DNA from: a virus
Taxonomy: Duplodnaviria; Heunggongvirae; Uroviricota; Caudoviricetes
Reading direction: 5' to 3' (one strand)
IMG/VR virus record: IMGVR_UViG_3300005399_000003
Length of the DNA: 64,000 bases
Positions within the stretch are counted from its first letter, which is position 1. Every line of letters begins with the position of its first letter. The position numbers and the translations under genes are program-made. Below are positions 10,375 to 62,700 of the stretch, in pieces. The notes below the pieces were generated by a model. The model saw nothing but the letters and a program-made list of their open reading frames with translations, was not told the origin of the DNA and searched no databases.

Positions 10375-10881
10375 ATGAGCAAGACGAAAGTACCCACCGT
10401 GAAAATGGCCCTTAATCTGCTGGAGGGCATCGAAGCACCTTCGCGTGGCAGCGAGCGGGCCGCAGCCCTCGATCTTCGCGCCAATGTCGATGGCCCTGTG
10501 CTTGTCCAACCCGGGCAGACAGTGATGATCCCCACAGGCGTTTATCTCGACATGACCGAAGACCCCACTGTCGCCGCCCTTGTGCTGCCCCGATCTGGCC
10601 TTGGCGCCAAGCAGGGCTTGGTGTTGGGCAATGGCACGGGTTTGATCGACAACGACTATCAGGGCGAAATCAAGATCGCGGCTTGGAACCGCAACGCCGT
10701 GACAAGTCCTGTCGGGCTGGGCGCTAAGCGCAACGGCGCGATTGTCATCGAACCCGGCATGCGTCTGGCGCAGATGCTCTTCCTGAACATCGCCTTCCCT
10801 GAGCTGGACATCACTAGCTTTGAAACCTTCGAGAAGACTGAGCGCGGCGAAAGCGGCTTTGGGTCCACGGGCACGGCGTAA
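10375..10881 (+). CDS. dut: dUTP diphosphatase
   Basis: GLIDNDYQGEIKI and a C-terminal ERGESGFGSTG motif. Confidence 0.9.
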   Translation: MSKTKVPTVKMALNLLEGIEAPSRGSERAAALDLRANVDGPVLVQPGQTVMIPTGVYLDMTEDPTVAALVLPRSGLGAKQGLVLGNGTGLIDNDYQGEIKIAAWNRNAVTSPVGLGAKRNGAIVIEPGMRLAQMLFLNIAFPELDITSFETFEKTERGESGFGSTGTA

Positions 10882-10937: not shown

Positions 10938-11594
10938 ATGATGGCAAACATTGGACTGACAGGGACGCATCGCACGGGCAAGACGACCCTGGCAAAGGCA
11001 TGGGCAGAGCAAGAAGGCGTTCAATACGTCACCCTGTCCGTTACTGAGGTGACGAAAGAAATGGGCATGACAACCCGACAGCTTCGGGACGATGCGGATG
11101 CCCGCTTAGAGCTTCAAAGCGGGCTTGTAGATCGCTGCCGTCAGCGCTTCTTTGAACCCCGTGCAGGGTTCATCTCGGATCGCACGCCCATCGACGTTGC
11201 AGCATACACCATGGCTGATGCAGTTGAAGGCTTTTACAGCGATGCGCAGTGGGACAAGGTGCAGACGATTGTTGCCGATTGCATAGACATCACGAACCAT
11301 GCCTTTCATCATCTGCTGATGCTCGTGCCTGAGAAGAGCATTGGATATGAGACAGGTGAAGGTAAGCCCGCGGCTGACCTTGCCTATCAGCTGCACCACA
11401 GTCTCGTGATTGCCGGGCTGCTGCGTGAGGAGGGGGTGACAGTTCCTGTCCAGCGCATGCGCAAGGGCCGCGCTCTCAAGGTGTCTGAGCGGCTCGCGGT
11501 GCTGAAATACATCTCCGAGAAACTTGTTCATCATCACTTCCGCATGGACGTGGAGAACCTGCGCGCAGCGGGGCATATCACCACCGTTCAATAG
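10938..11594 (+). CDS. P-loop nucleotide kinase, thymidylate/dNMP kinase-like
   Basis: GLTGTHRTGKTT P-loop, and DRTPIDVAAY resembling the TMK DRY..S.AYQ motif. Confidence 0.5.
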   Translation: MMANIGLTGTHRTGKTTLAKAWAEQEGVQYVTLSVTEVTKEMGMTTRQLRDDADARLELQSGLVDRCRQRFFEPRAGFISDRTPIDVAAYTMADAVEGFYSDAQWDKVQTIVADCIDITNHAFHHLLMLVPEKSIGYETGEGKPAADLAYQLHHSLVIAGLLREEGVTVPVQRMRKGRALKVSERLAVLKYISEKLVHHHFRMDVENLRAAGHITTVQ

Positions 11595-11662
11595 GTCACA
11601 TGCGACACTTGCCCGTCCACAAGGGCGGGCGTATCAATTAGTCAGCAATGAATGAGAGACAC

Positions 11663-11956
11663 ATGAGCAACAGCGTTCACGCAGTTCCTGATCCCAGCGA
11701 AGAGCTTGCCCGGAAGAGCAACGCAACGCTGGTGATGATCTTGGAGAAGATCGAGAGCACGGAGTGGTCTTATCAGCGCGGGGTTGATGCCCTCGATGTC
11801 CTTTGGGGCGTCTGCTCGGGCCTCGTTGATCGTGATCTGATGGACACGATCACGGCGACCCACACGCATTGCACCGCAGAGATCAAGGCAGGGCGAGAGT
11901 TTCACGGGGAACGCGCGTCTACACCACACGATCAAGATGAAATGGGAACTTGGTAA
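11663..11956 (+). CDS. hypothetical protein
   Basis: ORF with an upstream GAGAGA; TAATG junction downstream. Confidence 0.45.
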   Translation: MSNSVHAVPDPSEELARKSNATLVMILEKIESTEWSYQRGVDALDVLWGVCSGLVDRDLMDTITATHTHCTAEIKAGREFHGERASTPHDQDEMGTW

Positions 11957-14208: not shown

Positions 14209-14709
14209 ATGCTAAAGACACCACCAAAACGAGCAGGGCGCGACCCGATCTTGAACGTGCTGACAAGCCTCAGTCACGGCAAGACCTATGATGGGCTGGA
14301 TGAAGGCTACGCAAGCCTTTCGCACTGGAATCCTGAGTTTGAATACTCCTTCGACAAGTCGTTTGAGCCAATCGACTTCATGAAGCCTGAATACGCTGTC
14401 GAGGGCCGTACATGCGAATGGACGGGCGAGCAGATGTTCCTCAGTGACTACGGGGTGATCGACACCATCGAGCAGTTCGACGAGATGTTCGGCGAAGCGC
14501 TGCGGAATGACGAGCGCACTTTCTTTGTGACATTCGTGGAGATTGCCCGCAAAGATCAACCCGCAAGCGGCGGGTGGCGCTACCACAAGTGGGGTCCATA
14601 CTTCGGCACACAGAACCCGAAGCATGAGTACATCTACCACGATACGCATATCGACCGGGTGTTCACCTTCAGCATTCATCTGATCGAAGCAGAGCAGGTG
14701 ACGGCATGA
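14209..14709 (+). CDS. hypothetical protein
   Basis: ATG 14209 after GAAAGAACAGGAAAAC. Overlaps the RtcB start. Confidence 0.5.
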   Translation: MLKTPPKRAGRDPILNVLTSLSHGKTYDGLDEGYASLSHWNPEFEYSFDKSFEPIDFMKPEYAVEGRTCEWTGEQMFLSDYGVIDTIEQFDEMFGEALRNDERTFFVTFVEIARKDQPASGGWRYHKWGPYFGTQNPKHEYIYHDTHIDRVFTFSIHLIEAEQVTA

Positions 14710-16058
14710 GCGAGATTGAATCCCTCTACAGCGGCAACGACCTCATTCGCTGGGGTCTGAAGCCTGGGGCTTGGTTCAAGGACGCGATCGTCAAGGCGAA
14801 TGCGCTTTGGGATGCGGGCTACTCGGAAGACGAAATCAAGGTGCTCGTCTCGAAAGACGAGCCCACCTTCCTCGAAATGCGAAAGCCCGAGAATGGCTCG
14901 GCGTTCAGTGTCTTCCTTGAGCCTGAGAACGACATTGAGCAGGCTAATCGGGATCAGGTCGTAGAGGCCATGCGCGAAATCATGCGCGTGCCTGTCGTCA
15001 CGGGCGGCGCGGTGATGCCTGACGCTTGCCCTGCCGGCACGATCCCGGTGGGCGGCGTCGTCGAGTCGAGTGCCATTCACCCGAGCTATCACAGCGCCGA
15101 TGTGTGCTGCTCGATGGCGATGACGGTGATTAAGGAAGACGTCGATCAGATGGAGCTGCTGGACAAGATCCAGGAGCTGACCCACTTCGGCCCAACCAAG
15201 CGGGAGACGCGCCCTGTCGAGTTACCGGAAGGGTTCACTGACGGGTGGGGCGATAACATCTTCCTGACGGGTCTCGAAGACGTGGCGCGCAATCACTTCA
15301 CCACGCAGGGTGATGGCAATCACTTCTACTTCGTGGGGCGCTCGGAGGTGACAGGCGATGTGTGCATGGTCTCGCATCACGGCAGCCGCGGCTTCGGGGC
15401 GCAGGTCTACAAGCGCGGTAAGCAGGCTGCCGAAAAGCACACGCGCAACGTGGCGCCAAAAGTGCCTAAGCAACATGCCTGGATTTCGCCCGATGATCAC
15501 GGGCATCTGTATTGGGAAGCGCTGCGCGTTGTGCGTGAATGGACGAAGCTCAACCACTTCATGCTGCATGACGAAATCCTGCGGCAGATGAATGCGACAG
15601 CCGATTGTCAAACGTGGAACCCGCATAACTTCGTCTTTGAGCGGAACGGCATGTTCTATCATGCCAAGGGGGCGACGCCCTCCTTCTTTACTGGCTTCGA
15701 CGACGATGACGGCATGACCTTAATCCCCATGAACATGGCAGAGCCCATTCTGGTCACGTTCCATGAAGACAACCCGCATGCTCTCGGCTTCGCGCCACAT
15801 GGGGCAGGGCGGAACATGAGCCGCACAGCTTTCCTCAAAGAGCATGCGCCCGAGGCTCCTGCTGACATTGACGTGCGGTTCTGGTGCGGGATCGAGGACA
15901 AGAGTGAGCTGCCGCAAGCCTATAAGTCTGCGGCGCAGGTCACGAAAGCGATCAGCGAACACGAGCTAGCCCACATCGTTGACCGCATCATTCCTTATGG
16001 CTCGATCATGGCGGGCGATTGGGAGAGCGAAGCCCCGTGGCGCAAGAAGCGCAAGTAA
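14706..16058 (+). CDS. rtcB: RtcB-family 3'-phosphate/5'-hydroxyl RNA ligase
   Basis: MPDACPAG, GDGNHFYF, HHGSRGFG and PHGAGRNMSRT match RtcB metal- and GTP-binding motifs. Confidence 0.8.
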   Translation: MSEIESLYSGNDLIRWGLKPGAWFKDAIVKANALWDAGYSEDEIKVLVSKDEPTFLEMRKPENGSAFSVFLEPENDIEQANRDQVVEAMREIMRVPVVTGGAVMPDACPAGTIPVGGVVESSAIHPSYHSADVCCSMAMTVIKEDVDQMELLDKIQELTHFGPTKRETRPVELPEGFTDGWGDNIFLTGLEDVARNHFTTQGDGNHFYFVGRSEVTGDVCMVSHHGSRGFGAQVYKRGKQAAEKHTRNVAPKVPKQHAWISPDDHGHLYWEALRVVREWTKLNHFMLHDEILRQMNATADCQTWNPHNFVFERNGMFYHAKGATPSFFTGFDDDDGMTLIPMNMAEPILVTFHEDNPHALGFAPHGAGRNMSRTAFLKEHAPEAPADIDVRFWCGIEDKSELPQAYKSAAQVTKAISEHELAHIVDRIIPYGSIMAGDWESEAPWRKKRK

Positions 16059-18467: not shown

Positions 18468-18944
18468 ATGATGAAGGCAGATTGGCACGCCCTGTTCTGT
18501 CCGCAGTGCAAAGAGAAGGCGTATCTGAAGGTCGACTTCATGGGCGTTTGCAGACTGACCCCGGACGGGTCGGAAGATGTTGGCCCTCATACTTGGGACG
18601 GTAATAGCGCCTGCATATGCACGACCTGCGGATTCAAAGGGGTCGCCTCGATGTTCGCCTTTGAAGCGAATGATGCGGGCATGGTTGATTTACAGCCCGA
18701 CGATGAAATCGCCTTCGAGGTCATCATCAGCGGTATGGTGACGAATGACCGTGATGAAGAAACCTTGGCGGCCGAAGCGGGCGTTGAGCCTCAGTTTTGG
18801 GACGTTGAGCTGCGGCGGGCAAACATGCGCTCGGGAGTGATCGACATCATTGCCGAGACTGAGAACATCGACAGCTATGATGTTGCCGATGCTGTCGCAC
18901 AGGGTCTGGAAGAAATGAGCGGAGCGGGGATAGAATGGGTGTAG
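18468..18944 (+). CDS. zinc-ribbon protein
   Basis: CPQC...CICTTCGF cysteine pairs. Confidence 0.5.
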   Translation: MMKADWHALFCPQCKEKAYLKVDFMGVCRLTPDGSEDVGPHTWDGNSACICTTCGFKGVASMFAFEANDAGMVDLQPDDEIAFEVIISGMVTNDRDEETLAAEAGVEPQFWDVELRRANMRSGVIDIIAETENIDSYDVADAVAQGLEEMSGAGIEWV

Positions 18945-19513
18945 CGCCAAAACAAGCGCTTGATGCGGTGACTGCGCATGCGATCAGCGAGTATCTGCGG
19001 CTTGAGCGGGATCCGGAATGGAAGGTCAATGATCGCGCCAGCTATGAGAACATCGACACCAAGCGCAGCGTCACGTCATTCAACAATCAGCTTGATGGCA
19101 AAAAGACCTACATCGTCATTGATCATCAAGGCAAAGCCGAGTGGGTGACGCATAACTTTGGCGCCGCGCTGCGCGAGACATGCAAATGCGGCAATGCCGA
19201 GCGCCAGCCCTTTGTCATTAAGGTCTACGACACATGGGCCGCTGTCACGCACACAGGCAGCATCCGGCACGGCAAGTTTCACAAGACGCTGGGGGAGGCG
19301 AAGCTTTCATGGAAGAAGGCACTGCCGCTCGCCCCGCGGCTGAATGAAGACGAGATTGCCGAAAACTCCCGCGAGTGGCTGAAGCGACGCATCGCCTTCG
19401 GGGAGCAGGTGATCGAAGAGGGCAAGAAGAAGGTCCGTGAAGAGGAACGTCGCAAGGCGCGTGAAGAGAAGCGGGTTGAGGAAATGATCGGAGAGGGTTT
19501 CGGCGCATGGTGA
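18935..19513 (+). CDS. hypothetical protein with C-terminal EGFGAW tail
   Basis: Identical C-terminal hexapeptide to the 3158-3661 product. Confidence 0.5.
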   Translation: MGVAPKQALDAVTAHAISEYLRLERDPEWKVNDRASYENIDTKRSVTSFNNQLDGKKTYIVIDHQGKAEWVTHNFGAALRETCKCGNAERQPFVIKVYDTWAAVTHTGSIRHGKFHKTLGEAKLSWKKALPLAPRLNEDEIAENSREWLKRRIAFGEQVIEEGKKKVREEERRKAREEKRVEEMIGEGFGAW

Positions 19514-20905: not shown

Positions 20906-21465
20906 GCAATCTGGAAGAACACGAAGCAGAACAGGCGCGCATCACGGCTGAATGCGAAGCGGGTGAATGCGACCACCCTGAGTGCCACGAGGCTGCCTAT
21001 GACATCACGATGTCCTGGCACGACCAGCCCGAGGGTGGGACGTTTCGCACGACTGTCATGGCGAAAGATAGCGACGATGCCGAAGCAAAGTCCCGCTACG
21101 AGATGGCTGATAGCTACTTCTCGGAAGCGGGGCGCTGGTGCCGGCACTGCGGGGAGTGCTCAATTGGAGATGGTCACGACGGCTTCTGTGGTGACTGTGC
21201 CGATCGCATTGAGAACGGCGAAGAGCTTGCCGACACAGATGCGGCGTTGGATAAGATCGTCGAGGAATACGCCCACCAATGGGACGTGATCGACTGCTTC
21301 AAGGTGAGTGATCATGTCGATGCCAATCTTGAGCATAGCAAAATCCACCGTGAGACGAACCGACAGCTCGGTGTGGCGCTCAATCTGCTGTCTCGGCTAA
21401 GGGATGGCTTGATGAATGCCGAGATTGCGGCCGAGGTCGATGCGTTGCTGAATGGAGAGCATTGA
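20902..21465 (+). CDS. cysteine-rich hypothetical protein
   Basis: CEAGECDHPECH and CRHCGECS...CGDC. Confidence 0.5.
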   Translation: MSNLEEHEAEQARITAECEAGECDHPECHEAAYDITMSWHDQPEGGTFRTTVMAKDSDDAEAKSRYEMADSYFSEAGRWCRHCGECSIGDGHDGFCGDCADRIENGEELADTDAALDKIVEEYAHQWDVIDCFKVSDHVDANLEHSKIHRETNRQLGVALNLLSRLRDGLMNAEIAAEVDALLNGEH

Positions 21466-21776
21466 TGGGCATAGGCGACGAGGAAGAGCCGTCAGTCATG
21501 GTGCCCTTGCGGATCTTGAGAAATGTCGCTCGGTCGATCAACAACCTCACAGAGATCATCGAAGAGAACATTGATCTGCCAGAGGGCGGGTGCAACTGCG
21601 CGGCTATAAGCATACCGCCGTGCTCCTTTTGCGAGAATGGCGGGCACATGACCCTCGATGTGGCGCGTGCCGGGCATGATGCCCATGAGATCAGGGTGTT
21701 CCTCGACAAAGCTCAGACGCCAACCCCAGCAGAGGTCGAGACTGAGGGTGACATGCAGGGCTTTGGTTCGTTCTAG
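21462..21776 (+). CDS. hypothetical protein
   Basis: ATGA overlap; contains CNC...CSFC. Confidence 0.5.
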   Translation: MMGIGDEEEPSVMVPLRILRNVARSINNLTEIIEENIDLPEGGCNCAAISIPPCSFCENGGHMTLDVARAGHDAHEIRVFLDKAQTPTPAEVETEGDMQGFGSF

Positions 21777-33742: not shown

Positions 33743-33744
33743 AC

Positions 33745-33832
33745 TGCCCCGCTAGCGCCCCTCTGAGGGGCGTTAGCATCCCCGCAAGGGGGTCGGGTAG
33801 GGAATGACATTAGCGCCCCTCAGAGGGGCTTA
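33745..33832. terminator. convergent-transcription terminator hairpins
   Basis: GCTAGCGCCCCTC-TGA-GAGGGGCGTTAGC and TTAGCGCCCCTCAGAGGGGCT, between + strand and - strand gene blocks. Confidence 0.45.
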
Positions 33833-34048
33833 TATTGGGCGAATCACACGCGGGCGTTGCAAGAAGCCCTAGATTCGCTGTCAAGCCCTATGGACCGTCA
33901 CCTTCCTCTTTGCGGCGGGTTTTTCGGCCGCTCCTTATACAGCCGCGGACGGGGTGCAGACCGCTCCTTATACAGCCGTCCAAGGGTCCGATTGTCCGCT
34001 GGTCAAGGGTCCGTGGGTCGATTGGTCGCTGGTCGCCAGCGTCTTCGA

Positions 34049-34273
34049 TCAGTGGTCGCCATCGAAGAATTGCTCAAGGTTGATGGGAAACCAGCCGTCA
34101 GCGACGGAGCCCGCGAGGCAGGCTGTCGCCTCCCACGGGTCGTCCGTGCGCTGACCGTCTTCGTCGAACCAGATGGAGCAGTCGATCTCTTTACCGTCGC
34201 TGCGCAGGGCGATCTGCTCCGACGTGTTGATGGCGACGATCTTCAAAGGCTCTTGTGCGACAGGCAGGGGCAT
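34049..34273 (-). CDS. hypothetical protein
   Basis: ORF at the end of the minus-strand block. Confidence 0.4.
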   Translation of the reverse strand: MPLPVAQEPLKIVAINTSEQIALRSDGKEIDCSIWFDEDGQRTDDPWEATACLAGSVADGWFPINLEQFFDGDH

Positions 34274-34330
34274 GATGGTCTTTCGAGATGGATGGAAATT
34301 GATTCAGGAAGGTCGCAAAATTGTGGACGC

Positions 34331-34819
34331 TCACCCGCGTTCCTTTTCGAGCTGCGCCAATGTTCGGGCATTCAGGCGACATGCCTCTCTGACGAAGTCC
34401 ATTTCGTCTGGCCCCGTCATCGTGTGGGTCGGAAACAGATGATGTTCGATGATCACCATTGGAAGACGGATGCCCCTTAGTCTGTCGAGTGAGCCGTTGA
34501 ACGTGGTGCCGATGATGATACGCGGGCCGCTGTCGAGCAGAATGCTGCGACTTGTGGGGCTGTAGACCGGATCGCTGGTTTCAAGCCATTGAGACTTGAT
34601 AATACCCTGTGCGGCTTCGTGCTGACGGGGCGGGTTGGTGGCGAAAAGCACATTACAGCCCAGCACGGCGAGATAGGCTGCCTTGTTGTACTGCCCGAAA
34701 CTGCGGCCCGAGCGCCGCGGGGTGGCCATGTCGTAGTGCTGATGCGCCCCCATGAAGGCATGGGGGTCGCTGATCGTATAGGCGATGTAGGGCTCGGGTT
34801 TGGTCATGGCAGTGTGCAT
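34331..34819 (-). CDS. hypothetical protein
   Basis: GAGAAGGAAGACCCATG RBS on the minus strand. Confidence 0.5.
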   Translation of the reverse strand: MHTAMTKPEPYIAYTISDPHAFMGAHQHYDMATPRRSGRSFGQYNKAAYLAVLGCNVLFATNPPRQHEAAQGIIKSQWLETSDPVYSPTSRSILLDSGPRIIIGTTFNGSLDRLRGIRLPMVIIEHHLFPTHTMTGPDEMDFVREACRLNARTLAQLEKERG

Positions 34820-34831
34820 GGGTCTTCCTTC

Positions 34832-35059
34832 TCAGGGCAGAACGACGCTTGGGTCCAGCAGCAGGTCGATTTGCAGGTCGATGATGGTGATCTGACGCTC
34901 GATCTCCGGGACAGCGCGCGCCAGCCCCGGAAGGTTTGCGAAATCGTGGGTGTCTTTGAGGATCTCCACGGTGCGCTTGAGGCAGCAAACCTCGTCTTTG
35001 AGCTTGACCGCGCGCCAGATGCGGCTTGGGTTCGTGATGATGAACAACAGGGCTTCCAT
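34832..35059 (-). CDS. hypothetical protein
   Basis: ATG overlaps the stop of the upstream HAD gene (TGATG). Confidence 0.4.
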   Translation of the reverse strand: MEALLFIITNPSRIWRAVKLKDEVCCLKRTVEILKDTHDFANLPGLARAVPEIERQITIIDLQIDLLLDPSVVLP

Positions 35060-35598
35060 CAGTAGTTGCCCTCCGCGACCTGACAGCAGAGCAGCCCCTT
35101 CGCGCGCCACATGGCGGTGTCGTCTTTGCGATCTTCAAAGGCGAGCTTGGGATCGAAACCGTCCATGCGGGCTTGCTCCAGCAGTTCTCCTTTGACGATG
35201 TGACTTGGGCGACGATCACCATCCTTGCGCATGTAGATGATCGGGCCGACGACTTTGCCTTGGTAGCTCGTCTGCTTCATCCAGTAATGCCATGCGTAGA
35301 CGCGCACCGGGCAGTATTGGGTCATCAGCCAATTGTAGGTGACTTCACGCTGCGCCTCGGGTCGCCCGGTGATGAAGATCACGCGATGGCCCTCGTAGAG
35401 CATGGCTTCAAGCAGGCGCCAGGTTTGCTCGATCGGCGCATCCTTTGCCACAGCGTCATCGCTCAAGAAGGCATCCCAGTCCTTTCGGAAGGGTTGTTCA
35501 TAGGCGATGTTCGGATCGGGGGTGATGTGATGAAGACGGTGGCTGGCGTTTGCCAGCGTCCCGTCGATGTCGAAGACGATGTCCATGATGCGGCTCAC
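35059..35598 (-). CDS. HAD-family polynucleotide 3'-phosphatase, homolog of T4 Pnk C-terminal domain (no kinase domain)
   Basis: VFDIDGTL (motif I), VIFITGR (motif II) and a C-terminal AFEDRKDDTAMWRAKGLLCCQVAEGNY. The last closely parallels T4 Pnk [27 protein letters not shown]. Start is GTG 35598 or ATG 35586. Confidence 0.7.
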   Translation of the reverse strand: MSRIMDIVFDIDGTLANASHRLHHITPDPNIAYEQPFRKDWDAFLSDDAVAKDAPIEQTWRLLEAMLYEGHRVIFITGRPEAQREVTYNWLMTQYCPVRVYAWHYWMKQTSYQGKVVGPIIYMRKDGDRRPSHIVKGELLEQARMDGFDPKLAFEDRKDDTAMWRAKGLLCCQVAEGNY

Positions 35599-36116
35599 TT
35601 CATGTCGTCAGGCAGGGCGGCATCGGTGATGCGCGCGTAGACCTTGCCAAGGCGGTTGTAGATCCAGCGGCCGATGTCCATCAGGAAGTCATCGAAGAAG
35701 TAGACGATCATCGAGAAGGGCCACAGAATGATCCAAGTGGCGATACGCTCGATGTGCTTGCTAGCCCGGGCCTCATTGGGGAAGTAGATGCTTTCCTTGA
35801 AGGGCGTGCTGGGGGTTTTGCCTTTGTGGGTGCAGTCGAAACTATGCTTGGCATCATGCAAGGCACGCTGCACGCGACTGCTATGCATCCACCGGCGCCA
35901 TTTGTAGAGCGACCAGACAGTGCCGATAGCAAGCGACAGGACGGTCAGGGAAATCAGCGTGACGGGGTCTGCCAGAAAGGCCAGATGAGACAGTCCGAAG
36001 AAGACGTAGCCCACCGCGAGATAGACGACCACCATGGCGGCTGCGAGGGTAAGGGATTCAAACCAGGCGGCCGCGCCGAATACGCTCAGTGTGATCAGAA
36101 GAAGGATGAAGTGCAT
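35595..36116 (-). CDS. integral membrane protein (4-5 TM)
   Basis: Hydrophobic helices throughout. Confidence 0.55.
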   Translation of the reverse strand: MHFILLLITLSVFGAAAWFESLTLAAAMVVVYLAVGYVFFGLSHLAFLADPVTLISLTVLSLAIGTVWSLYKWRRWMHSSRVQRALHDAKHSFDCTHKGKTPSTPFKESIYFPNEARASKHIERIATWIILWPFSMIVYFFDDFLMDIGRWIYNRLGKVYARITDAALPDDMK

Positions 36117-36167
36117 GTTGTGCTCCTGTTAGTCAGTTGTGACTTACTTTAGCAGGCAAATGAAGTC

Positions 36168-36479
36168 TCACCAACTGCCAAATTCAGGGCCGGAACTCTC
36201 GATGTCGATCAGGCGCTGGATCTCCGTCCACTCTGCGATCTGAAAGCGCTCCCAGGCAGATCGGGTCAGATAGACAGGCTGCGGGTTGATGAAATCAGGG
36301 GCGGCGATCAGAAACCCGCGGCTGTGCAGGGTGGCGCCGGCGTCGATGTCTGTGACATTGCGCACCATGAAGCCATCGGACTGCATGTAGACGGCATAGT
36401 CCTTCAGCTCGGGCATGGTCATGCTGTCAACAATGCGACGCAGGAGCCCGCCGGGGGTTCTGTCGACCTTTTCTACCAT
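36168..36479 (-). CDS. hypothetical protein with C-terminal EFGSW tail
   Basis: ATGGTAG overlap with the upstream gene. Confidence 0.5.
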   Translation of the reverse strand: MVEKVDRTPGGLLRRIVDSMTMPELKDYAVYMQSDGFMVRNVTDIDAGATLHSRGFLIAAPDFINPQPVYLTRSAWERFQIAEWTEIQRLIDIESSGPEFGSW

Positions 36480-37240
36480 TCACCGAAGGCCTCTTGCTGT
36501 TCAGCGCTGTCGAGGGTGAAGTCCTCTAGCTGCGAGACAAGCCTCTCTTCAGGAGAGGGTGGCAGCTCAGCTTTCTTCACCGGGATTTCAGTGCCGTCGC
36601 TGAGAACATAGACCAGCTGTCCGTCGGCTTTCCATAACAACTCGCCATCGGTCTCTTTGATGCTGATCTTTTGCTCAACCTGTTTGCTGGTATTGTGCCA
36701 TGCTTGAAGCACGTCAGATTCGATCTTAGCCGCGGAAATGGAGCCGCTTGCGATGGTTGAGCCTTCCAGCGCTATCGCCTTGCCCCACTCTGCCTCCATT
36801 TCCTTCATCTTATCTCTCGTAAGGATGCCGCCGGAGGCCTTGGGTGCGAAAGTGCCCATCCCGAGATGCGCGTCGAGCGCCTCTCTGGTAATGTCCCTCT
36901 TTGCCTTCATAAGATCAGCCTTGAGGAGGGTGTGATCCTTCCGCTCTTGCTCGACCATGGCGGTCTTTTCGCCTATGCTCGCTTTGTGGAATGCATCCTC
37001 CAGCTTCTTCGCGGCGGCGGTGAAGTCCTCGAAGCTCTTTGCTGCATCCCCAATCGACGATCCGGGCAGCTTTGTCCATTTCATTTCTGGAAACGTGGTC
37101 TTCACGGGCTCTTTTGGCTTGAGTGCTTCAGGCATATCCTTTGAGGCAGGCTTATCCGTCGAGAAGGGTTTGTCCAAACCACCCGGGCGACCTAGCAGTG
37201 CGCCGATGCCGTGTTTGATCTTTTGATTGACATAGCTCAT
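36473..37240 (-). CDS. hypothetical protein with C-terminal AFGEW tail
   Basis: 255-aa lysine/glutamate-rich protein. Confidence 0.5.
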   Translation of the reverse strand: MSYVNQKIKHGIGALLGRPGGLDKPFSTDKPASKDMPEALKPKEPVKTTFPEMKWTKLPGSSIGDAAKSFEDFTAAAKKLEDAFHKASIGEKTAMVEQERKDHTLLKADLMKAKRDITREALDAHLGMGTFAPKASGGILTRDKMKEMEAEWGKAIALEGSTIASGSISAAKIESDVLQAWHNTSKQVEQKISIKETDGELLWKADGQLVYVLSDGTEIPVKKAELPPSPEERLVSQLEDFTLDSAEQQEAFGEW

Positions 37241-37263
37241 GTTTTCCCTCGTATCCTTTCTTC

Positions 37264-37512
37264 ATGTCCGACCTCACCCTGCTAAAAATAGCCCAGATGA
37301 ACCCGTCTATGGTTCCCTTACATCTTATCGCCCGAGCGTATCTCCTCGGGGACGCCAAGGTGCGTGCCGCGATGATTGACAGAGCTTTGCAGGCGCAGGG
37401 TCACACCGAGATGCAGCGCCAGGCCATTCGATCGGTGTTGATGATAAGCAAAAGGGCCTCCTTGGAGGCCCTCGATGCGGCCGGAGCCTTCGACGCTTTG
37501 ACGTGCCACTAA
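37264..37512 (+). CDS. possible small + strand gene nested between minus-strand genes
   Basis: Protein-like ORF but no clear RBS; uncertain. Confidence 0.25.
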   Translation: MSDLTLLKIAQMNPSMVPLHLIARAYLLGDAKVRAAMIDRALQAQGHTEMQRQAIRSVLMISKRASLEALDAAGAFDALTCH

Positions 37513-38124
37513 TCAGGCGATGATATAGGGCCGCGTGATCCGCCGTTCGGGGAAGAGGGCGTTGTAGCGCATCACGAAGTTGGCGTAAGCGTAAGGGGGC
37601 AGCTGGGGGTTGATGATCACTTGGTCATCAGGGATGCACAGATGGGGCTCTGGCGGCGCGTAGTTCTCTTTGAGGTCGCGCACTTCGGTGTTGAGCATGA
37701 TGGCGTCGAGTTCTTTGATTTCGGCGCAATCCCACATGTCAGGGTCGATTTCGTGATCTTCAAAGATCATCCGGGTGACGTTGGTCTCATGCCCCTTGAT
37801 GGAGGGACACTTGCGTTTCAGGGGCGTGACAATCTCGCCGATCCAAGCTTCGCCTGCATCATGCAGTAGGGCTGCGCGGGCAAGGTCGATATTGCTACCC
37901 TCATGCAAATCCTCGGCCCAATACGACATGATGGTCGAATGCTGTGCGACGGAGTAATACCCGTTGGTATAGCCGTTAAAACGGCTCTGGTTCGCCAATG
38001 AGATGGCGACAGTTGACATGTCGATCATGTCTCGCTGAGGGTTTGTGAAGTCAATCTTGGCTCCACCCAGTGTCCAAAGTTCCGTGTCTTTGGTTTCCAT
38101 CATTGTCGTGACTGGCAATGTCAT
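37513..38124 (-). CDS. HD-domain 5'-deoxynucleotidase (YfbR-like)
   Basis: YSVAQHS, LLHDAGEAWIGEIVTP matches YfbR VSEHS, YHDASEVLTGDLPTP. Confidence 0.7.
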   Translation of the reverse strand: MTLPVTTMMETKDTELWTLGGAKIDFTNPQRDMIDMSTVAISLANQSRFNGYTNGYYSVAQHSTIMSYWAEDLHEGSNIDLARAALLHDAGEAWIGEIVTPLKRKCPSIKGHETNVTRMIFEDHEIDPDMWDCAEIKELDAIMLNTEVRDLKENYAPPEPHLCIPDDQVIINPQLPPYAYANFVMRYNALFPERRITRPYIIA

Positions 38125-38738
38125 GCTCCCGTTCTCAATCGCGTATCTCTAGCGCCGTTAATCCAATCTGTGAGGGGTGATTGAAGAATCGCTCTCCGAA
38201 GGCCTTCCAAAGAAGTCCCTGGATTATGAATGGTGAAGTCCACCAGGCTACGATCGTAGCTGTCGAACTCCCACTCACTAGCTTCCTTTAGCCCGCTCAA
38301 TACCTCTACGACGACACCACCAGCTCTTTTGTAAGCCGCGCCCTGCTGTCTTCGTACACTTCCAAAGCTGTAACCGTTGGGTGACTTATTGTCACCCCAA
38401 AACTGTCCCGAGGGTGTCACATTTTGTCGCAAGACGGAACGAATAGCGATTTCAGGAATTGCTTCATCCCCCAAAAGCGCTTCCACAAGATTGCCATATT
38501 CCCCAAGCAGCTGTCGAACTTGCCATTTCTTGCCGAAAACCGTGACGAAACGTAGCTTTCCTTCTTGAGAATATACGTCTTCAGGGGTCAGGCCCGCAAG
38601 GTCCATGACGTGACGCCGGATGATGTCGCCATCGTCCACTGGCTCGATTCCGAATAGTTCGGTAAGTAAGCGCTGAGTTGTTGTTTTCCCTGAGCCTGGA
38701 GCGCCGCAGAGTGCGATCAAAGTCGATGTTCTCGACAT
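38121..38738 (-). CDS. deoxynucleoside monophosphate kinase (T4 gp1-like P-loop kinase)
   Basis: GAPGSGKTT P-loop. KWQVRQLLGEYGNLVEALLGDEAIPEIAI parallels T4 gp1 QWSVRRLMQALGTDLIVNNFDRMYW. Confidence 0.55.
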   Translation of the reverse strand: MSRTSTLIALCGAPGSGKTTTQRLLTELFGIEPVDDGDIIRRHVMDLAGLTPEDVYSQEGKLRFVTVFGKKWQVRQLLGEYGNLVEALLGDEAIPEIAIRSVLRQNVTPSGQFWGDNKSPNGYSFGSVRRQQGAAYKRAGGVVVEVLSGLKEASEWEFDSYDRSLVDFTIHNPGTSLEGLRRAILQSPLTDWINGARDTRLRTGA

Positions 38739-38795
38739 GTTCTTTCCTTGGTTGGAATCAGTGTTAGCTGACTATAGCAGCAAGCCGCCGCGCTG

Positions 38796-40286
38796 TTAAG
38801 CGGCGAGCTTGAAGCCAAGACCAAGGGCGTCGAACTCCTGACCCTTCTTGAGGATGTTTTCAGCGAAGCCCGGGGTTGCCTCGACAATGGCCCTGCGAGC
38901 GCGGGCGTGCTTCTTGAGGTACTTGTTGCCGATGTCGCTGTAGTCCACGACGAAGCAGATGTTCGGAAGCCCACCTTTCTTTTCTCGCAGACCGCGCCCG
39001 ATGCGCTGGCGCAATGCGACCTCAGCTTTCCCGCCCCCGGCAAGAATCACCATCCCTACGGCCGGCACGTCCACACCCACATCGAGAATGGTCGAGCCGA
39101 TCAGCACTGCGGTCTCGCCAGACTTTAGGCGATTGAGGGCGCGCTGACGCTGGTCATTATCATGGGCGCCGTGAATGAACTCTGTGGCAAATCCTAATTT
39201 GCGGCAGTTGTCTCGTAGCGTAACTCCATGTGCCTTACGCTGCACCAAGATCATCACCGGCAGTCCGAGCTTTCGGGCGAACTCGACGCGAGACACAATA
39301 TCGGCATTGCGCATGTCGTTCTTCACCACACCGATGTCATACGCTTTCTGCCAGCTGTAGAACTGCTTGAGGTCTTTGGGCGGCGGGACATCGCGATACT
39401 GGAAGATCGGACGTGCAAGGATGTTGCGCTCGATCAGCATCTTCTCGGGGATGCTAATGCCGATCTGACCCGAGACACCCATGAGCCGCATATTGGCCTC
39501 TGCATCCGCGCGCATGAACGGGGTCGCGGTCAGGGCAAGCCTGTATCGCGCGTTCACCATCTCATTCATCACCTTGAAGTACGTCTCCGACCCCGCCTCA
39601 TGCGCCTCCTCAAGAATGCAAAACTCGAACATATGCAGCAGCTTGGTGGTGGCGCCCATGGTTTCGGGGTTCGACAGCCGCGCATCGAGGGTTTGGATCA
39701 TACCGACGTTCACCCCGCGGGTTGGACGCCATTCGCCGTCACCCATAACGCCCACCTTGAAGCCGGCTTGCTCAAAGCCGTCCTTCATCTGGTACATCAG
39801 CACCTGACGTGTCGTGATAAACAGGGTAGGGCGCATGATGCGTTTCACCGCGGTGCGTGCGATCATCGACTTGCCGCCACCGGTAGCGACCTGGGCGATC
39901 ATAGCGCCGTACTTCTCAAGCCTGCGTACCGTCTCGGGCTGATAGTCATACCGAGGGTCGATGTCGAAGGGGTTCACAGCCGCGTAAGCCTCATCCAGGG
40001 GCGGGCCTAACGGGGCGGGTAGGGGCTTTCTGCGTACCGTGACCTGATAACCCTCCTGACGCAGCTTATCGACCGCAGAGGCCAGAAAGCCCGCAGGGAA
40101 GATGCCTGTCGAAAACTCCAGAAAGCTTGTGCGCCCATCCCAGCCTTGGTTCTTACCCCGGCCTGTATGCTCGGCTCCGTCCACATAGTAGCTGAGCTGA
40201 TCCGAGACGATTAGCTTCGCCTCGATGTCGGCTTCCATCATGCGGGCCTTCACCGCATTCGCAACTATGAGAACATGCTCAGACAT
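38796..40286 (-). CDS. superfamily-2 DEAD/DEAH-box DNA helicase
   Basis: ATGGGKS (motif I), ILEEAHE (motif II), LTATP (motif III), QRIGRGLR (motif VI). Confidence 0.8.
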   Translation of the reverse strand: MSEHVLIVANAVKARMMEADIEAKLIVSDQLSYYVDGAEHTGRGKNQGWDGRTSFLEFSTGIFPAGFLASAVDKLRQEGYQVTVRRKPLPAPLGPPLDEAYAAVNPFDIDPRYDYQPETVRRLEKYGAMIAQVATGGGKSMIARTAVKRIMRPTLFITTRQVLMYQMKDGFEQAGFKVGVMGDGEWRPTRGVNVGMIQTLDARLSNPETMGATTKLLHMFEFCILEEAHEAGSETYFKVMNEMVNARYRLALTATPFMRADAEANMRLMGVSGQIGISIPEKMLIERNILARPIFQYRDVPPPKDLKQFYSWQKAYDIGVVKNDMRNADIVSRVEFARKLGLPVMILVQRKAHGVTLRDNCRKLGFATEFIHGAHDNDQRQRALNRLKSGETAVLIGSTILDVGVDVPAVGMVILAGGGKAEVALRQRIGRGLREKKGGLPNICFVVDYSDIGNKYLKKHARARRAIVEATPGFAENILKKGQEFDALGLGFKLAA

Positions 40287-40373
40287 GACATTACCTTGCT
40301 ACAAAGGGGTTTATCTTATACATTATAACTCAGAAATGACTTACCTTATACCCCTCCTTCAGGCAAGGACAGC

Positions 40374-59417: not shown

Positions 59418-59794
59418 TCGACACCACTGACCTCATTGGCAAACCCTTCGAGTACCATGGGCGCGGCCCGGACAGCTATGACTGCTGGGGTCTCGTCAAG
59501 GAGTGCTACCAGCGCTGGCATGGGGTCGAGCTTCCCGACTATCCCTCCACCCCAAGTCCGCTGAGCAATGACAAAGAAATGCGGCGGGCTGCTCAATCGC
59601 CCGTCTGGAAGCCCGTAGAACGCATGCAAGCGGGTTCGCTCGTCATGCTGAGGGTCAGGGGCTTCGGATCGCATGTGGGCTTCGCTCTGACGCCCACACG
59701 CATGATCCACACTCTTTCGAATGTGAACGCAGTCATCGTGCGGGCGCAGACTTTCAAAAACCAAATCATAGGCTCGTATCTCTATGTCGGCTGA
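59414..59794 (+). CDS. NlpC/P60-family tail protein (lambda gpK-like)
   Basis: YDCWGLV...GSHVGFAL matches Cys-His of the NlpC/P60 fold. Confidence 0.65.
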   Translation: MIDTTDLIGKPFEYHGRGPDSYDCWGLVKECYQRWHGVELPDYPSTPSPLSNDKEMRRAAQSPVWKPVERMQAGSLVMLRVRGFGSHVGFALTPTRMIHTLSNVNAVIVRAQTFKNQIIGSYLYVG

Positions 59795-62700
59795 TAGCAA
59801 CTTCGTCCTCGCGACCATCATCTATGACCCGCTCGATCTGGAGAACCGCCAGACCGTCGAGCTGGAGTATCAGCCTGGAAAGGCTCTGTCGCATTACATC
59901 GACGGGCTGCCCGAGGAGCATACTTGGGAGGTGGCGCTCGACAGCACGTTCATTCCCGAGGAGGGGCATGCCCTGACATTCCCGCAGAAGGGGTCGCACA
60001 TCACAGTGGCACCGGTGCCGCACGGCGGCGACAGTGACGGCAAGCAAATCCTGATGCTTGTCGCCACCATCGCGTTGAGCTTCGCAGCCCCTGCGATCGG
60101 CACGGCATTGGCAGGGAATTACTTCGGTGGCTCAGCGCTGGCTGCAAGCATGATCGGGGCGGGTGTCTCGATTGCCGGCGGTTTGTTGATCAACGCCTTT
60201 CTGCCGCGCCCCGACCAGGCGACCAATGAAGACGCGCAGACTTACGGCATCGACGGGCCGAAGAACACTTCGCAGGAAGGGCTGCCCGTCCCTGTGATCT
60301 TCGGCCGGCACGGGTTCGGCGGCAACATCATCGACATGTACACCGAGAACAGCACTGACAGTAATGGTCAGGCGATTCAGTTTCTCTATGCTCGAACCCT
60401 CGTGTCGGAAGGCCCGATCAACAGTCTTGGTGACTTCCATTTCAACGGGCAGCCGATCAGCTCCTTCGAAGACGTTGAGACAGACTTCCGCCACGGCGGC
60501 AGCGATCAACAGCCCTCAGAGTGGTTCGATCGCACCATCACGCTTTACAACCAATCGCGGGATTTCACCGAGAACTTCCAGACCTACGAGACCGTCGGTG
60601 AGGTTGATAAAATCCGCCTCGATGTCGCTTTCCCGCTGGGGCTGATCTTCACGGACAATAAAGGCCGCGAGAACCCCTTGGCGGTCGATCTGATCATGGA
60701 ATGCCGTAGGCTGGGGTCGTCTGACCCCTGGCATGGCATCAGCAGTCAGCACGCTTGGACGGACACGGGCGGCACATCGGGCACGGGCGATAAGTTCCGC
60801 GTTCATGTGAAGTACGTCCCAGCCATCCAGACCGACTATGTGGGTAGGGGCGATAAGGAGGTGCACAGGGTCGTCTCGCCCGATCCGGATTACAGTCTGG
60901 AGTACAGGGTCAATGGCGGCGCATGGACGGAGCACGAGCGCTACACGCGCGGGCCGAGGAATGGTAATACGACCAGCGGTGATGCAGCTGAGATCGTCGC
61001 CACGATTGACGGCTTCAGCAATGACACTGTTGAGTTCCGCGTTGTCAATCACGCCACCGGCGACTTCCCTGCAACGATCACTGTCAGTCGGGTCGAGTTG
61101 AAAGGCGAGGGTGTAACAGGCGGCTCGCCTGTCGTTACTATCAATGAAGTCAGCACCACGCCCCTGCGCTACAGCTTCATCTCCGACCAGCTGCCCGAAG
61201 CGCGGTATGAAATCCGCTTCCGCCGCGGTGCGCCCGAGATTGTGGGTGAGAGCAACAAGCGTGACAAGGCCGTGCTTGTGGATGTCGGCGAGATCATTAC
61301 CGACCCCGTATCGCTGATCCACTCCGCATGGGCGGGGTACAAGATCAAGCTGTCCGGACAGCTGAGCGCCATTCCTACATTCACGGGCGTTGCCGAGGGC
61401 ATGATTATGCCCATCTACGACCATGAAGGAAACGTGGTCGATAACACCTATTCGAACAACCCCGCCGATGTCGCGCTGCACGCCTATATGAACCGTCGAT
61501 GGGGCGGGAAGATCGAGCCTCAGCGGATCGACTTCGTGGCATTCTCGGAGTGGCGCGAATACTGCGAAGAGAACAACTTCACCTGCAACATCCTGTTCAG
61601 CGATATTGGCAATATCGACGAGCAGCTCAAGCACTGCTTCATCGCGGGCCGCGCGCAGCGGGTCACGCAGGGCGCCAAACTTTCTGTCATCACCGACAGT
61701 CCCTCCGCGCCTGTGATGATGTTCAACTCGACGCTGATCGAGAAGAACAGCCTTGAGATGCAGTATCTGCCGTTCACCGAGCGGGTGAACGATCTCTCCG
61801 TCACCTACTATGACGAGGAGAATGACTATCAGAGCGCCACAGTGCGCGCGGTCAATGACGTTGCACTGGCGCGCGGCGAGGAGTTGCGTTCAAGCTCGAT
61901 CCAAGTGAAAGGCATCACGTCGCGGTCCCGGGCGCAGCGCGAAGCCAACTTCCGCATGAACTACAACCGCCTGATCACCCGCACGGCGAGCTGGGTGTCT
62001 CCGTTGCATGCCATCAGCTGCACCGTGGGCGATGTGGTGATCTTGCAGACCGACATGTTCGACTGGAAAGCGGGCGGTCTTGTGCGCCCGGGATCCACAG
62101 CAACAACGCTCAAGCTTGACCGTGAGGTCGAGATGCAGTCAGGAATGAGTTACTCCGTCCTGCTGCACCGCGATAAACGCCGCATTGCATCGACCAGCAT
62201 CACATCTCAGACAGGCTCGATGGTCACTGTCTCGGGTGTCTTGCCTGAAGACGGCAGTGTGCGGCGTCTGAAGAAGGGCACTAAGGATTACGCAATCCTT
62301 CGGGTCATTCCCGGCAGCAGCACGACTGACCTCATTCTGAAGGATGCACCGGCGCTTTCGGGCTCTGTTGAGATTTGGTCGACAGATGTCTTGGATGAAA
62401 TCGCCGTCAACAACCCCGGCACGGGGTCGTATGACACGATCACACTGGCAACGGCCGCACAAGACGGACCACCGACAGACTTTTCGACCTTCATCTTCGG
62501 CGCCAGCTCGAAGCAGAATCGCGAGTTCCGCATCACTGAGATGTCGCGCGAAGGCGCGGAGAAGATCGCACTCACGGCAGTCGAGTATGTGCCGGAAGTC
62601 TATGACGATGACGACATCCACACCGGGATTGAAAACCCCGGCACTGAGTTTGGCGCGCATGTCATCAACCTGACGGCTGCGGAATCCTCGAAGATCGGAG

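Follow-up and report, generated by a model that had tools for sequence, protein, structure and literature searches.

A block of genes transcribed leftward at positions 34049–40286 of a 64,000-nt stretch of viral DNA (Caudoviricetes; IMG/VR record IMGVR_UViG_3300005399_000003), the whole of which is referred to here as the window, encodes a superfamily 2 (SF2) helicase, a nucleotide kinase-like protein, an HD-type phosphohydrolase, a stand-alone HAD phosphatase, a membrane protein and several small proteins without recognizable family (ORFans). As judged from its gene content and from comparison with related phages, this is a conserved and largely explained module, an otherwise ordinary block whose one unexplained feature is the C-terminal motif [FY]-G-x-W-COOH, which seems undescribed. 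All seven genes named in the initial annotation were recovered on the minus strand, and their identifications were correct at the family level by Pfam, PHROG and PDB profile matches. The description was confirmed with three amendments: there are additional genes, one internal gene runs rightward, and the block forms two units rather than one. The relatives compared with the window are labelled L009, L020, L021, L022, L023 and L027, with L001 and L002 standing for phages ANB28 and Nican01. The features of the block, in the order of leftward transcription, are as follows:

38796–40286, minus strand: SF2 helicase, 496 amino acids (aa), with ResIII and Helicase_C domains; the conserved anchor of the block
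38771–38799, minus strand: the sole sigma-70-like promoter match in the region, a consensus match (TTAACA-17-TATAGT with TG) just upstream of the kinase gene
38121–38738, minus strand: P-loop (deoxy)nucleoside monophosphate kinase-like protein, 205 aa (phrog_139)
37513–38124, minus strand: putative HD nucleotide phosphohydrolase of the Atu1052/YfbR kind, 203 aa (phrog_318)
37452–37473, minus strand: intrinsic-terminator-like hairpin, a GC-rich stem of 9 bp with TTTTGCTTAT after it, some 40 nt past the HD stop codon
37264–37512, plus strand: 82-aa gene, predicted helical product, filling the 272-nt "gap" between the HD and 255-aa genes and antisense to the terminator
36473–37240, minus strand: 255-aa protein ending ..EAFGEW-COOH; first gene of unit 2
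36168–36479, minus strand: 103-aa protein ending ..EFGSW-COOH, from a family of about 100-aa proteins
35595–36116, minus strand: membrane protein, 173 aa, with four hydrophobic helices read by eye from the sequence
35059–35598, minus strand: stand-alone HAD phosphatase, 175 or 179 aa long depending on whether translation starts at ATG 35586 or at GTG 35598
34832–35059, minus strand: 75-aa ORFan whose start overlaps the HAD stop codon by 1 nt; 89% identical in L009
34331–34819, minus strand: 162-aa ORFan, 86% identical in L009, with a weak match in L027 (252-aa protein, 25%, 7e-6)
34049–34273, minus strand: 74-aa ORFan, the last gene of the block, 86% identical in L009, with a weak match in L027 (32%, 4e-5)

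The last three minus-strand open reading frames (ORFs) had not been named in the initial annotation; their products share 86–89% aa identity with those of L009. No family match was found for the 74-, 75-, 162-, 173-, 103-, 255- and 82-aa proteins in Pfam, PHROGs, NCBIfam or PADLOC.

The motif had been noted on two co-translated products of the block. The tails proved real on both the 255-aa and the 103-aa protein, and the 7-nt overlap of the two genes fits translational coupling; the 255-aa gene has a good Shine-Dalgarno sequence (GAGGG) ahead of its ATG. Restricting the motif to these two genes, however, underrated it, since it is far wider. Four more gene products of the window, all encoded outside the block, carry the tail, a variant or a looser form of it:

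3101–3661, plus strand: 186-aa ORFan ending ..EGFGAW-COOH, with no Pfam or PHROG match
18935–19513, plus strand: 192-aa ORFan ending ..EGFGAW-COOH, with no homologue but itself
21462–21776, plus strand: 104-aa ORFan with the variant end ..QGFGSF-COOH
11648–11956, plus strand: 102-aa ORF ending ..DEMGTW-COOH, the looser G-x-W form only

Among the approximately 95 genes of the window, five end in G-x-W where 0.105 would be expected from the aa composition of the window (P ~1e-7), and four end in [FY]-G-x-W where 0.0064 would be expected (P ~7e-11); among about 550 non-coding ORFs a single spurious G-x-W ending was seen. The tail-bearing proteins of the window are otherwise unrelated by BLASTP. 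For the 255-aa protein, one homologue was found among 5.8 billion proteins, with 64% identity and the tail ..EAFGGW (AFGEW being replaced by AFGGW in L009). In L020, L021, L022 and L027, which represent every recovered context with a same-strand gene upstream of a 103-aa homologue, this upstream gene is unrelated to that of the 255-aa protein, yet its product ends in [FW]GxW. The 103-aa protein itself gave 25 matches when searched with HMMER against 1.84 billion representative proteins, and the family comprises about 20 families or distant homologues of about 100 aa (25–57% identity), nearly all of which end in xG[SEG]W (alignment A1), an ending retained even among members only 25–35% identical; four long proteins among the matches were rejected as spurious, being repetitive surface proteins. 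In the AlphaFold2 (AF2) model of the 103-aa protein (predicted local distance difference test, pLDDT, of 80), residues 9–95 form a folded core, whereas the last seven residues are disordered, with pLDDT below 50 at residues 97–102. A fold search with this model against PDB and BFVD gave no significant match, only a weak winged-helix/MarR-like likeness (E >0.1; template modelling score, TM, of 0.3–0.4).

The same ending is found in relatives. In the Stenotrophomonas phage ANB28, at least 10 proteins end in Y-G-x-W and more end in IGAW, QGSW or KGDW; 8 of the 10 Y-G-x-W genes are consecutive in the helicase-led block of that phage. The same eight-gene run was found on two IMG/VR contigs, with Y, G and W invariant and with differences at x and in the residues upstream. 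The first gene of the run has a Pfam BRCT match and the second is BRCT-like by eye only. Nican01 has two adjacent genes ending in WGSW and AGGW. The codons for F/Y and G differ between copies of the tail, and the motif persists where no gene follows closely; these two observations argue for selection on the protein rather than on a coupling signal. The tails thus have the hallmarks of a short linear motif: they lie at the extreme C-terminus of unrelated proteins, their positions are kept while the flanks vary, and the segment is disordered. The literature search on the motif returned only unrelated papers and no description of it. A degenerate DNA pattern for ..EGFGAW-stop, tried against IMG/VR, gave one match, by chance inside a capsid gene. 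In ANB28, at 98921–103066 (L001:11517–15662), a 481-aa classic AAA ATPase is encoded immediately upstream of the eight-gene YGxW run and may be a clue to the partner of the tails, e.g. an unfoldase; no homologue of it was found in the window.

Short C-terminal docking tails shared by several proteins are known from E. coli SSB (..DDDIPF), from the acidic ..F tails of T7 gp2.5 and gp4, and from the clamp-binding C-termini of T4 gp43, gp33 and gp55. By analogy with these, a very short C-terminal motif is shared here by unrelated proteins, where it follows a linker that is flexible and often acidic and ends in an aromatic residue with a free carboxylate. In contrast, [FY]-G-x-W is unlike the motifs of those systems, and the tagged proteins are small ORFans, except for the two BRCT-like proteins of ANB28. 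Tentatively, and with slightly less than an even chance of being right, we propose that [FY]-G-x-W-COOH is an undescribed motif that plugs a large and fast-changing set of small early proteins into one conserved hub in the supergroup related to ANB28 and the Nickie phages. The tagged set, clustered behind the UvsW-like helicase, numbers 5–6 proteins in the present phage and 10 or more in ANB28, with BRCT-like proteins among the latter. Such a hub would be either a docking pocket on a phage or host replication or recombination protein, or a protease that clears tagged proteins on schedule.

The inverted block is not a single operon. Since a conserved hairpin follows the HD gene (37452–37473) and a plus-strand gene (37264–37512) lies inside the block, it consists of at least two leftward units. 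The hairpin occurs at the same place in L009, where a G.U pair preserves the stem, in L027, with another stem sequence followed by TTTTTT, and in L022, with a weaker T-run. Unit 1, predicted to comprise the helicase, kinase and HD genes and to end at this hairpin, is conserved as a module; unit 2 includes the two tail-tagged proteins, the membrane protein, the HAD protein and three ORFans, and its content varies between relatives.

The rightward gene between the two units encodes an 82-aa protein of the same length in L009 (90% identity), with 16 synonymous and 8 non-synonymous codon changes and 7, 5 and 16 changes at the first, second and third codon positions. Homologues in the same position and orientation are present in L027 (60%) and L022 (36%). 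The protein has no Pfam, PHROG or PADLOC match, and no homologue of known function was found; no evident Shine-Dalgarno sequence precedes the gene. At its 3' end the gene overlaps the terminator hairpin of the opposite strand, and its start codon lies 23 nt from the divergent 255-aa gene (0 nt in L027).

By the codon-bias gene map and the ORF list, the window is chiefly rightward, with a minus-strand run from 40286 to 34049. That this is the only leftward block in the window holds for sizeable blocks, the remainder being mostly rightward; two other long minus-strand ORFs (60516–61634 and 62139–63086) are shadow frames opposite a plus-strand ORF that starts at 59772 and spans at least 1409 codons. 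This ORF (59772–64000, plus strand) runs off the right end of the window and is weakly similar to a tail protein of Nican01.

Exact copies of the helicase gene were found on metagenomic contigs of up to 94.7 kb, whereas the nearest cultured relatives share no more than 50% helicase identity: these are the Stenotrophomonas phages ANB28 and BUCTxx99, Xanthomonas phage JGB6, Nickievirus, the Rhizobium RHEph10-like phages and the SSU5-like phage-plasmids. A megablast search with the block against 50,697 phage records gave no match, and an IMG/VR scan with the helicase returned no relatives. To the backbone that the window shares with ANB28 and Nican01 belong SbcC, a RuvC-like protein, Pol III epsilon, two ParB proteins, two ABC ATPases, terminase, portal, capsid and tail genes; of the two phages, only ANB28 has matches to the dUTPase and RtcB of the window. 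The helicase gene faces two ParB-like genes across a gap of 64–162 bp in ANB28, Nican01, RHEph10, SSU5, L022/L023 and L027, and in ANB28, where nearly the whole genome is on one strand, only the helicase-led block (96.4–104.5 kb) is inverted. Presence of the block in the same orientation in all relatives had been named as grounds against the initial interpretation; for the block as an architectural unit this largely proved to be the case, the helicase-led block facing the ParB genes in the same relative orientation in every relative examined.

What follows the helicase differs between the cultured relatives: 1) In ANB28, it is followed by a cell-wall hydrolase, an AAA ATPase, BRCT proteins, small ORFs and dihydrofolate reductase. 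2) In Nican01, no more genes lie on the helicase strand, and a tRNA cluster lies on the opposite strand. 3) In RHEph10, a homologue of the kinase and a ParA-like gene follow. 4) In SSU5, there are five small genes. In contrast, L009, L022 and L027 have retained the same gene order, running from the helicase through the kinase, HD gene and antisense ORF to the tail proteins, with protein identities as low as 36–50%. L027 also has homologues of the membrane protein (32%, compared with 87% in L009) and of the 162-aa and 74-aa proteins, as well as the same convergent neighbour, 42% identical to the 227-aa gene of the window.

Mobile elements have entered these loci in several relatives. In L009, an HNH homing-endonuclease gene (L009:3083–3670; 195 aa, phrog_374 4e-53) lies between the membrane-protein and HAD genes, and its opening codons repeat the first six of the HAD gene (MDIVFD). 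The HAD ORF that follows (IDIVFDVDGT) has no ATG, and an AGGAG precedes an ATC codon by 8 nt. The insert may be an intron-like element, or else a free-standing endonuclease gene that has captured the start codon. The L027 helicase (L027:3240–5783; 847 aa in total) contains an intein (Hom_end_hint/LAGLIDADG) after residue 140, and that of Nican01 (L002:4864–6540) was matched by tblastn in two pieces, consistent with an insertion near residue 205.

The helicase matched Pfam ResIII (4.5e-15, 56.4 bits), Helicase_C (6e-13, 49.4 bits) and DEAD (33.2 bits), with a weak match to UvsW_N, and in the profile search of PDB it matched XPBII (2e-17) and T4 UvsW over its full length (2oca, 4e-6). With both domains and this full-length alignment it resembles T4 UvsW and archaeal XPB (Rad25), and its relatives are annotated as UvsW; it differs from T4 UvsW in its low identity (E 4e-6) and, unlike in T4, its gene is fixed in divergent orientation to two ParB-like genes. 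Identities are 42–50% with ANB28, Nican01, RHEph10 and SSU5, 73% with L022 and 81–83% with L027.

The kinase matched phrog_139, labelled 'dNMP kinase' (deoxynucleoside monophosphate kinase), at 9.4e-18, with residues 3–185 aligned to profile positions 81–257 of 342. It has a Walker A motif (GAPGSGKT) and an adenylate-kinase-like N-terminus (GAPGSGKT...GD.iR), residues 8–62 align with adenylate kinases, and no T4 Dnk structure was among its PDB matches up to E 1. It shares 42% identity with its homologue in L022 and 50% with that in L027, and in the RHEph10-like phages the kinase gene likewise lies just downstream of the helicase gene. The GC content at third codon positions (GC3) of this gene is 0.49, compared with about 0.7 in the genes around it, and the codon-bias map did not call it as a gene; recent acquisition or different constraints on its expression may be the cause.

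The start of the HD gene overlaps the stop of the kinase gene by 4 nt. The HD protein matched phrog_318 (1.5e-44), and residues R48, H62, H88, D89, E92 and D140 are invariant in 24 homologues. We take these to correspond to the metal and substrate ligands of YfbR, the hidden Markov model (HMM) alignment covering part of this match in residue numbers. In the profile search of PDB the order was Atu1052 (1.7e-35), then Lin2634, YfbR (2paq, 1.2e-4), OxsA, DatZ (E 0.03) and HDDC2. An AF2 model (pLDDT 90) was matched by Foldseek to Atu1052 (2gz4) with TM 0.76, which is far closer than YfbR (probability 0.80–0.96 but TM of only 0.39–0.46), with DatZ, OxsA and HDDC2 about equal to the latter. The protein shares the HD fold and the R...H...HD..E...D residues with E. 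coli YfbR, human HDDC2 and Atu1052, and probably belongs to the small nucleotide-phosphohydrolase branch that includes YfbR, HDDC2, OxsA and DatZ, acting on a putative dNMP or deoxynucleoside triphosphate (dNTP). T5 Dmp was considered as an HD enzyme akin to it, but BLASTP found no similarity, and T5 Dmp is a HAD protein of phrog_415.

The HAD protein passed the Pfam HAD_PNKP family (PF25109; 2.7e-23, 83.1 bits against a cut-off of 27.6), and its best PHROG was phrog_415 (1.2e-30); T5 Dmp matched phrog_415 at 3.6e-57 and no Pfam family. In PDB, its match was to T4 Pnkp, in the C-terminal part of the phosphatase domain (1ltq/5uj0, E 8e-9 to 9e-8; residues 244–301 of 1ltq). Its motif I, DIDGT at residues 10–14, aligns with VIFDVDGT of T4 and WDLDGT of T5, and the acidic pair of motif IV is kept as E-D, a FEDR segment aligning with IDDR of T4. 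The protein differs from T4 Pnkp in standing alone, at 175–179 aa, without the N-terminal P-loop kinase domain: only the phosphatase domain was matched, and a phrog_505 match covered only profile positions 164–294. Its initial description as a kinase-less homologue of the Pnk phosphatase domain therefore holds, but stand-alone proteins of this type are common: 1,858 phage records matched it, 1,746 of them over at least 80% of the query. Its position next to the membrane-protein gene, noted initially as unusual, is incidental: the HAD gene was found only in the window and L009, the membrane-protein gene of L027 lies at the block's far end, away from any HAD gene, and L022 has neither. As a functional unit the pair was rejected, being absent from L027 and L022, and the 'TMhelix' neighbour in Vibrio phages is an unrelated 52-aa protein. 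The HAD protein is a kinase-less member of a very common phage family and an add-on in one sub-lineage. Since T5 Dmp is a HAD enzyme in the same PHROG, a role as nucleotide phosphatase would be at least as likely as the healing of RNA or DNA ends; T5 Dmp is the sole experimentally characterised stand-alone member of the family. Although PHROG 415 carries the label 'polynucleotide kinase', its members include T5 Dmp and many HAD proteins that lack a kinase domain, and the automatic annotation of 150–250-aa phage proteins as 'polynucleotide kinase' is likely wrong.

The block had been described as combining two enzymes that would act on dNMPs in opposing directions, in a set of genes that is not a textbook module. 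The T5 pair Dnk and Dmp has already been described and explained, however, so that the argument from opposing enzymes describes a known design. T5 Dmp is a HAD-type dNMP phosphatase, inactivated by the D22A mutation (bioRxiv 10.1101/2024.12.20.629578); in our alignment, D22 is the first Asp of the DLDGT motif. Phage dNMP kinases trigger Kongming immunity through dITP synthesis, Dmp defeats it by removing dAMP, and Dmp homologues are found mainly in phages carrying dNMP kinases (bioRxiv 10.1101/2024.12.20.629578). In addition, Dmp together with NrdAB reshapes the dNTP pools sensed by the Clover system (PMC12265719), and dmp enhances the virulence of T5 (bioRxiv 10.64898/2026.04.02.716235). The window likewise pairs a dNMP-kinase-like P-loop kinase with a phrog_415 HAD protein, the DxDGT motif being present in both HAD proteins. 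It differs from T5 in gene placement: in T5 the two genes lie at a great distance from each other, and two-step DNA injection also separates them in time, whereas those of the window lie about 2.5 kb apart in adjacent leftward units. It also differs in that the window has a second candidate nucleotidase, the HD enzyme, whose gene is coupled to that of the kinase. What is new here is modest: the comparison suggests that the conserved, translationally coupled partner of the kinase is an HD enzyme.

The nucleotide-metabolism set extends beyond the block, since the rightward arm carries a second nucleotide kinase-like gene, 27% identical to a 'putative thymidylate kinase' of Nican01 (10938–11594), a dUTPase gene upstream (10375–10881) and a class II ribonucleotide reductase (4325–6730). 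A gene for the RNA ligase RtcB lies at 14706–16058 (phrog_1075 4.5e-90), and ANB28 has one too; its presence implies a route for repair of 3'-phosphate/5'-OH RNA ends without need of a 3'-phosphatase.

From gene content, homologies, the conservation of order, orientation, terminator and tails, and the disorder of the tails, the following is proposed for enzymatic substrates, timing of expression and the role of the tails. The region is probably an arm of accessory 'early' genes in a large siphophage belonging to the ANB28/Nickievirus/RHEph10/SSU5 supergroup. The helicase-led block would be transcribed, as two leftward units, away from the ParB-ParB-ABC-ABC-terminase operon. The XPB/UvsW-type helicase would serve replication or recombination, and the kinase would drive (d)NMPs to dNDPs and dNTPs for phage DNA synthesis, while the HD enzyme, translationally coupled to the kinase, and the HAD enzyme would remove particular or host-derived deoxynucleotides. 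As in T5, the dNTP pool might thereby be remodelled and the phage's own kinase kept from setting off nucleotide-sensing immunity such as Kongming. The [FY]-G-x-W tails, on flexible ends, would let unrelated small early proteins use one partner. That partner may be a protease timing their removal, or else a conserved protein of phage or host that offers a docking site.

Several observations weigh against this proposal. The HD protein scored 20.0 bits with Pfam YfbR-like (PF12917), below the cut-off of 25.9, its L022 relative is also a weak match, and its TM to YfbR is only about 0.4; its nearest structure, Atu1052, has no assigned function, and the protein could equally be a dNTPase of the DatZ kind. 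Every Pfam match of the kinase fell below the cut-off, and tblastn with the kinase against the 50,697 phage records (E 1e-3) retrieved only 10 RHEph10-like Rhizobium phage records, with no direct similarity to T4 gp1 or T5 Dnk. The HAD protein is remote from T5 Dmp, the pairwise similarity being limited to motif I, and aligns better with the T4 Pnkp phosphatase domain, so that it may instead have polynucleotide 3'-phosphatase activity. It is also missing from L022 and L027 and hence lies outside the conserved module. No full sigma-70 site was found by consensus scan in the divergent region (40287–40373), and the parts of SSU5 (11 kb) and RHEph10 (14 kb) that were examined showed no [FY]-G-x-W tails.

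Alternatively, the genes behind the helicase may have accumulated without functional link, as unrelated accessory genes ('morons') in a recombination hotspot beside it. This is unlikely though not far-fetched: the genes downstream of the helicase differ completely between ANB28, Nican01, RHEph10, SSU5 and the window, an HNH gene has been inserted in L009, the helicase of L027 has an intein and that of Nican01 is matched in two pieces, and the GC3 of the kinase gene is atypical. It does not account for the gene order common to L009, L022 and L027, from the helicase through to the tail proteins, nor for the overlaps of the kinase-HD and 255-aa/103-aa gene pairs. Another possibility, which we consider highly improbable, is that the G-x-W endings are a by-product of DNA-level signals for translational coupling (GGN...TGG TAA TG) rather than a protein motif. 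Several tail genes do overlap or abut the next gene: the window has two 7-nt overlaps in which A-TGG-TA gives the next ATG, ANB28 has TAATG junctions and 14-nt overlaps where tAT-Gg gives the ATG, and GGAG in the Gly-x codons can serve as a Shine-Dalgarno sequence. However, the motif is kept where no next gene is close (window 36168, with a 51-nt gap, and window 3661; ANB28 4987, 25507 and 31983), the codons for F/Y and G vary synonymously, an aromatic residue at -4 has no coupling rationale, and some 20 distant 103-aa homologues keep G-[SEG]-W while non-coding ORFs gave the one spurious case mentioned above.

Two further explanations concern the enzymes. The HAD protein might be a polynucleotide 3'-phosphatase or 2',3'-cyclic phosphodiesterase that heals ends made by nucleases, e.g. 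host anticodon nucleases, together with the phage RtcB. This is quite unlikely, even though the protein passes HAD_PNKP with 83 bits, its alignment with the phosphatase domain of T4 Pnkp takes in the motif IV region, and the phage also encodes RtcB. RtcB joins 3'-phosphate or 2',3'-cyclic phosphate ends directly to 5'-OH ends, and a 3'-phosphatase would destroy its substrate. Unlike T4, the window shows no Rnl-type ligase partner and no 5'-kinase, the ligase being RtcB, which needs no 3'-dephosphorylation; the HAD gene lies 19 kb from that of RtcB and is absent from L022 and L027, ANB28 has RtcB yet no HAD match in the 106.9 kb searched of its 108.4-kb genome, and the characterised dNMP phosphatase T5 Dmp shares the PHROG of the HAD protein. 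The kinase and HD enzyme, on the other hand, might serve DNA with a modified base, the HD enzyme destroying one canonical deoxynucleotide while the kinase phosphorylates its replacement, in the way that DatZ removes dATP in Z-genome phages and dTMPases act in hydroxymethyluracil and uracil phages. The HD profile reaches DatZ (E 0.03; Foldseek probability 0.97), the pair overlaps by 4 nt and is kept in L022 and L027, and the kinase is unlike the standard dNMP kinases of T4 and T5. We regard this explanation as very doubtful, as the likeness to DatZ is no better than that to YfbR or HDDC2, and no base-modifying enzyme such as PurZ, a hydroxymethylase or a glucosyltransferase came to light in the block or elsewhere in the window, part of which was annotated.

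The borders of the block agree with the initial description of terminators on the left and a promoter region on the right, in that a long hairpin (33757–33829) lies on the left and an AT-rich divergent region with a conserved TATAAT on the right:

33743–34048, no strand assigned: convergent intergenic region of 306 nt, with a long bidirectional hairpin (33757–33829) and two 18-nt direct repeats
40287–40373, no strand assigned: AT-rich divergent control region of 87 bp between the helicase and the first ParB gene, with the 11-nt direct repeat TTAYCTTATAC twice

The left hairpin is formed by a 19-bp inverted repeat (33757–33775/33811–33829), with a T-rich tail on the plus strand only. The two exact 18-nt direct repeats, CCGCTCCTTATACAGCCG at 33928–33945 and 33961–33978 (TGTATAAGGAGYGG on the minus strand), are kept in L009 and L027, and the repeat boxes (33928–33978) carry TGTATAAGGAG. 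The 306-nt region is near-identical in L009, whereas coding DNA is only 81–88% identical; its non-coding part at 33830–34048 is more conserved than the flanking genes, and other boxes, ATCTAGGGCTT among them, are likewise kept. In sense orientation, GTATAAGG is also present ahead of the helicase gene (40344–40351) and of the gene at 7731 (7630–7637). These conserved boxes may be promoters, operators, or parts of a small leftward RNA ending at the big hairpin. CTTATAC was rejected as a general promoter element, the frequency of the 7-mer being close to chance and only the longer boxes significant. In the divergent region the TATAAT reads in the helicase (minus) direction and is kept, with the flanking TAAGTCA, in L027 and L023. 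Rfam gave only sub-threshold, microRNA-like matches on hairpins within 32.5–41.5 kb, and no tRNAs were found in the window.

As one more phage set of a kinase and nucleotide phosphatases, the block adds little, the pairing being understood as remodelling of the nucleotide pool and evasion of Kongming and Clover. An HD-type nucleotidase coupled to the kinase would, if true, be a possible alternative solution against Kongming. The comparison also corrects a likely annotation trap, the 'polynucleotide kinase' label of PHROG 415 standing over the dNMP phosphatase of T5. The four-residue tag provides a direct experimental handle on ORFans that otherwise have no annotation, and it could reveal a hub on which a whole phage supergroup depends; if the tails do plug into such a hub, phages would have their own equivalent of the SSB-tail or clamp-binding-tail systems.

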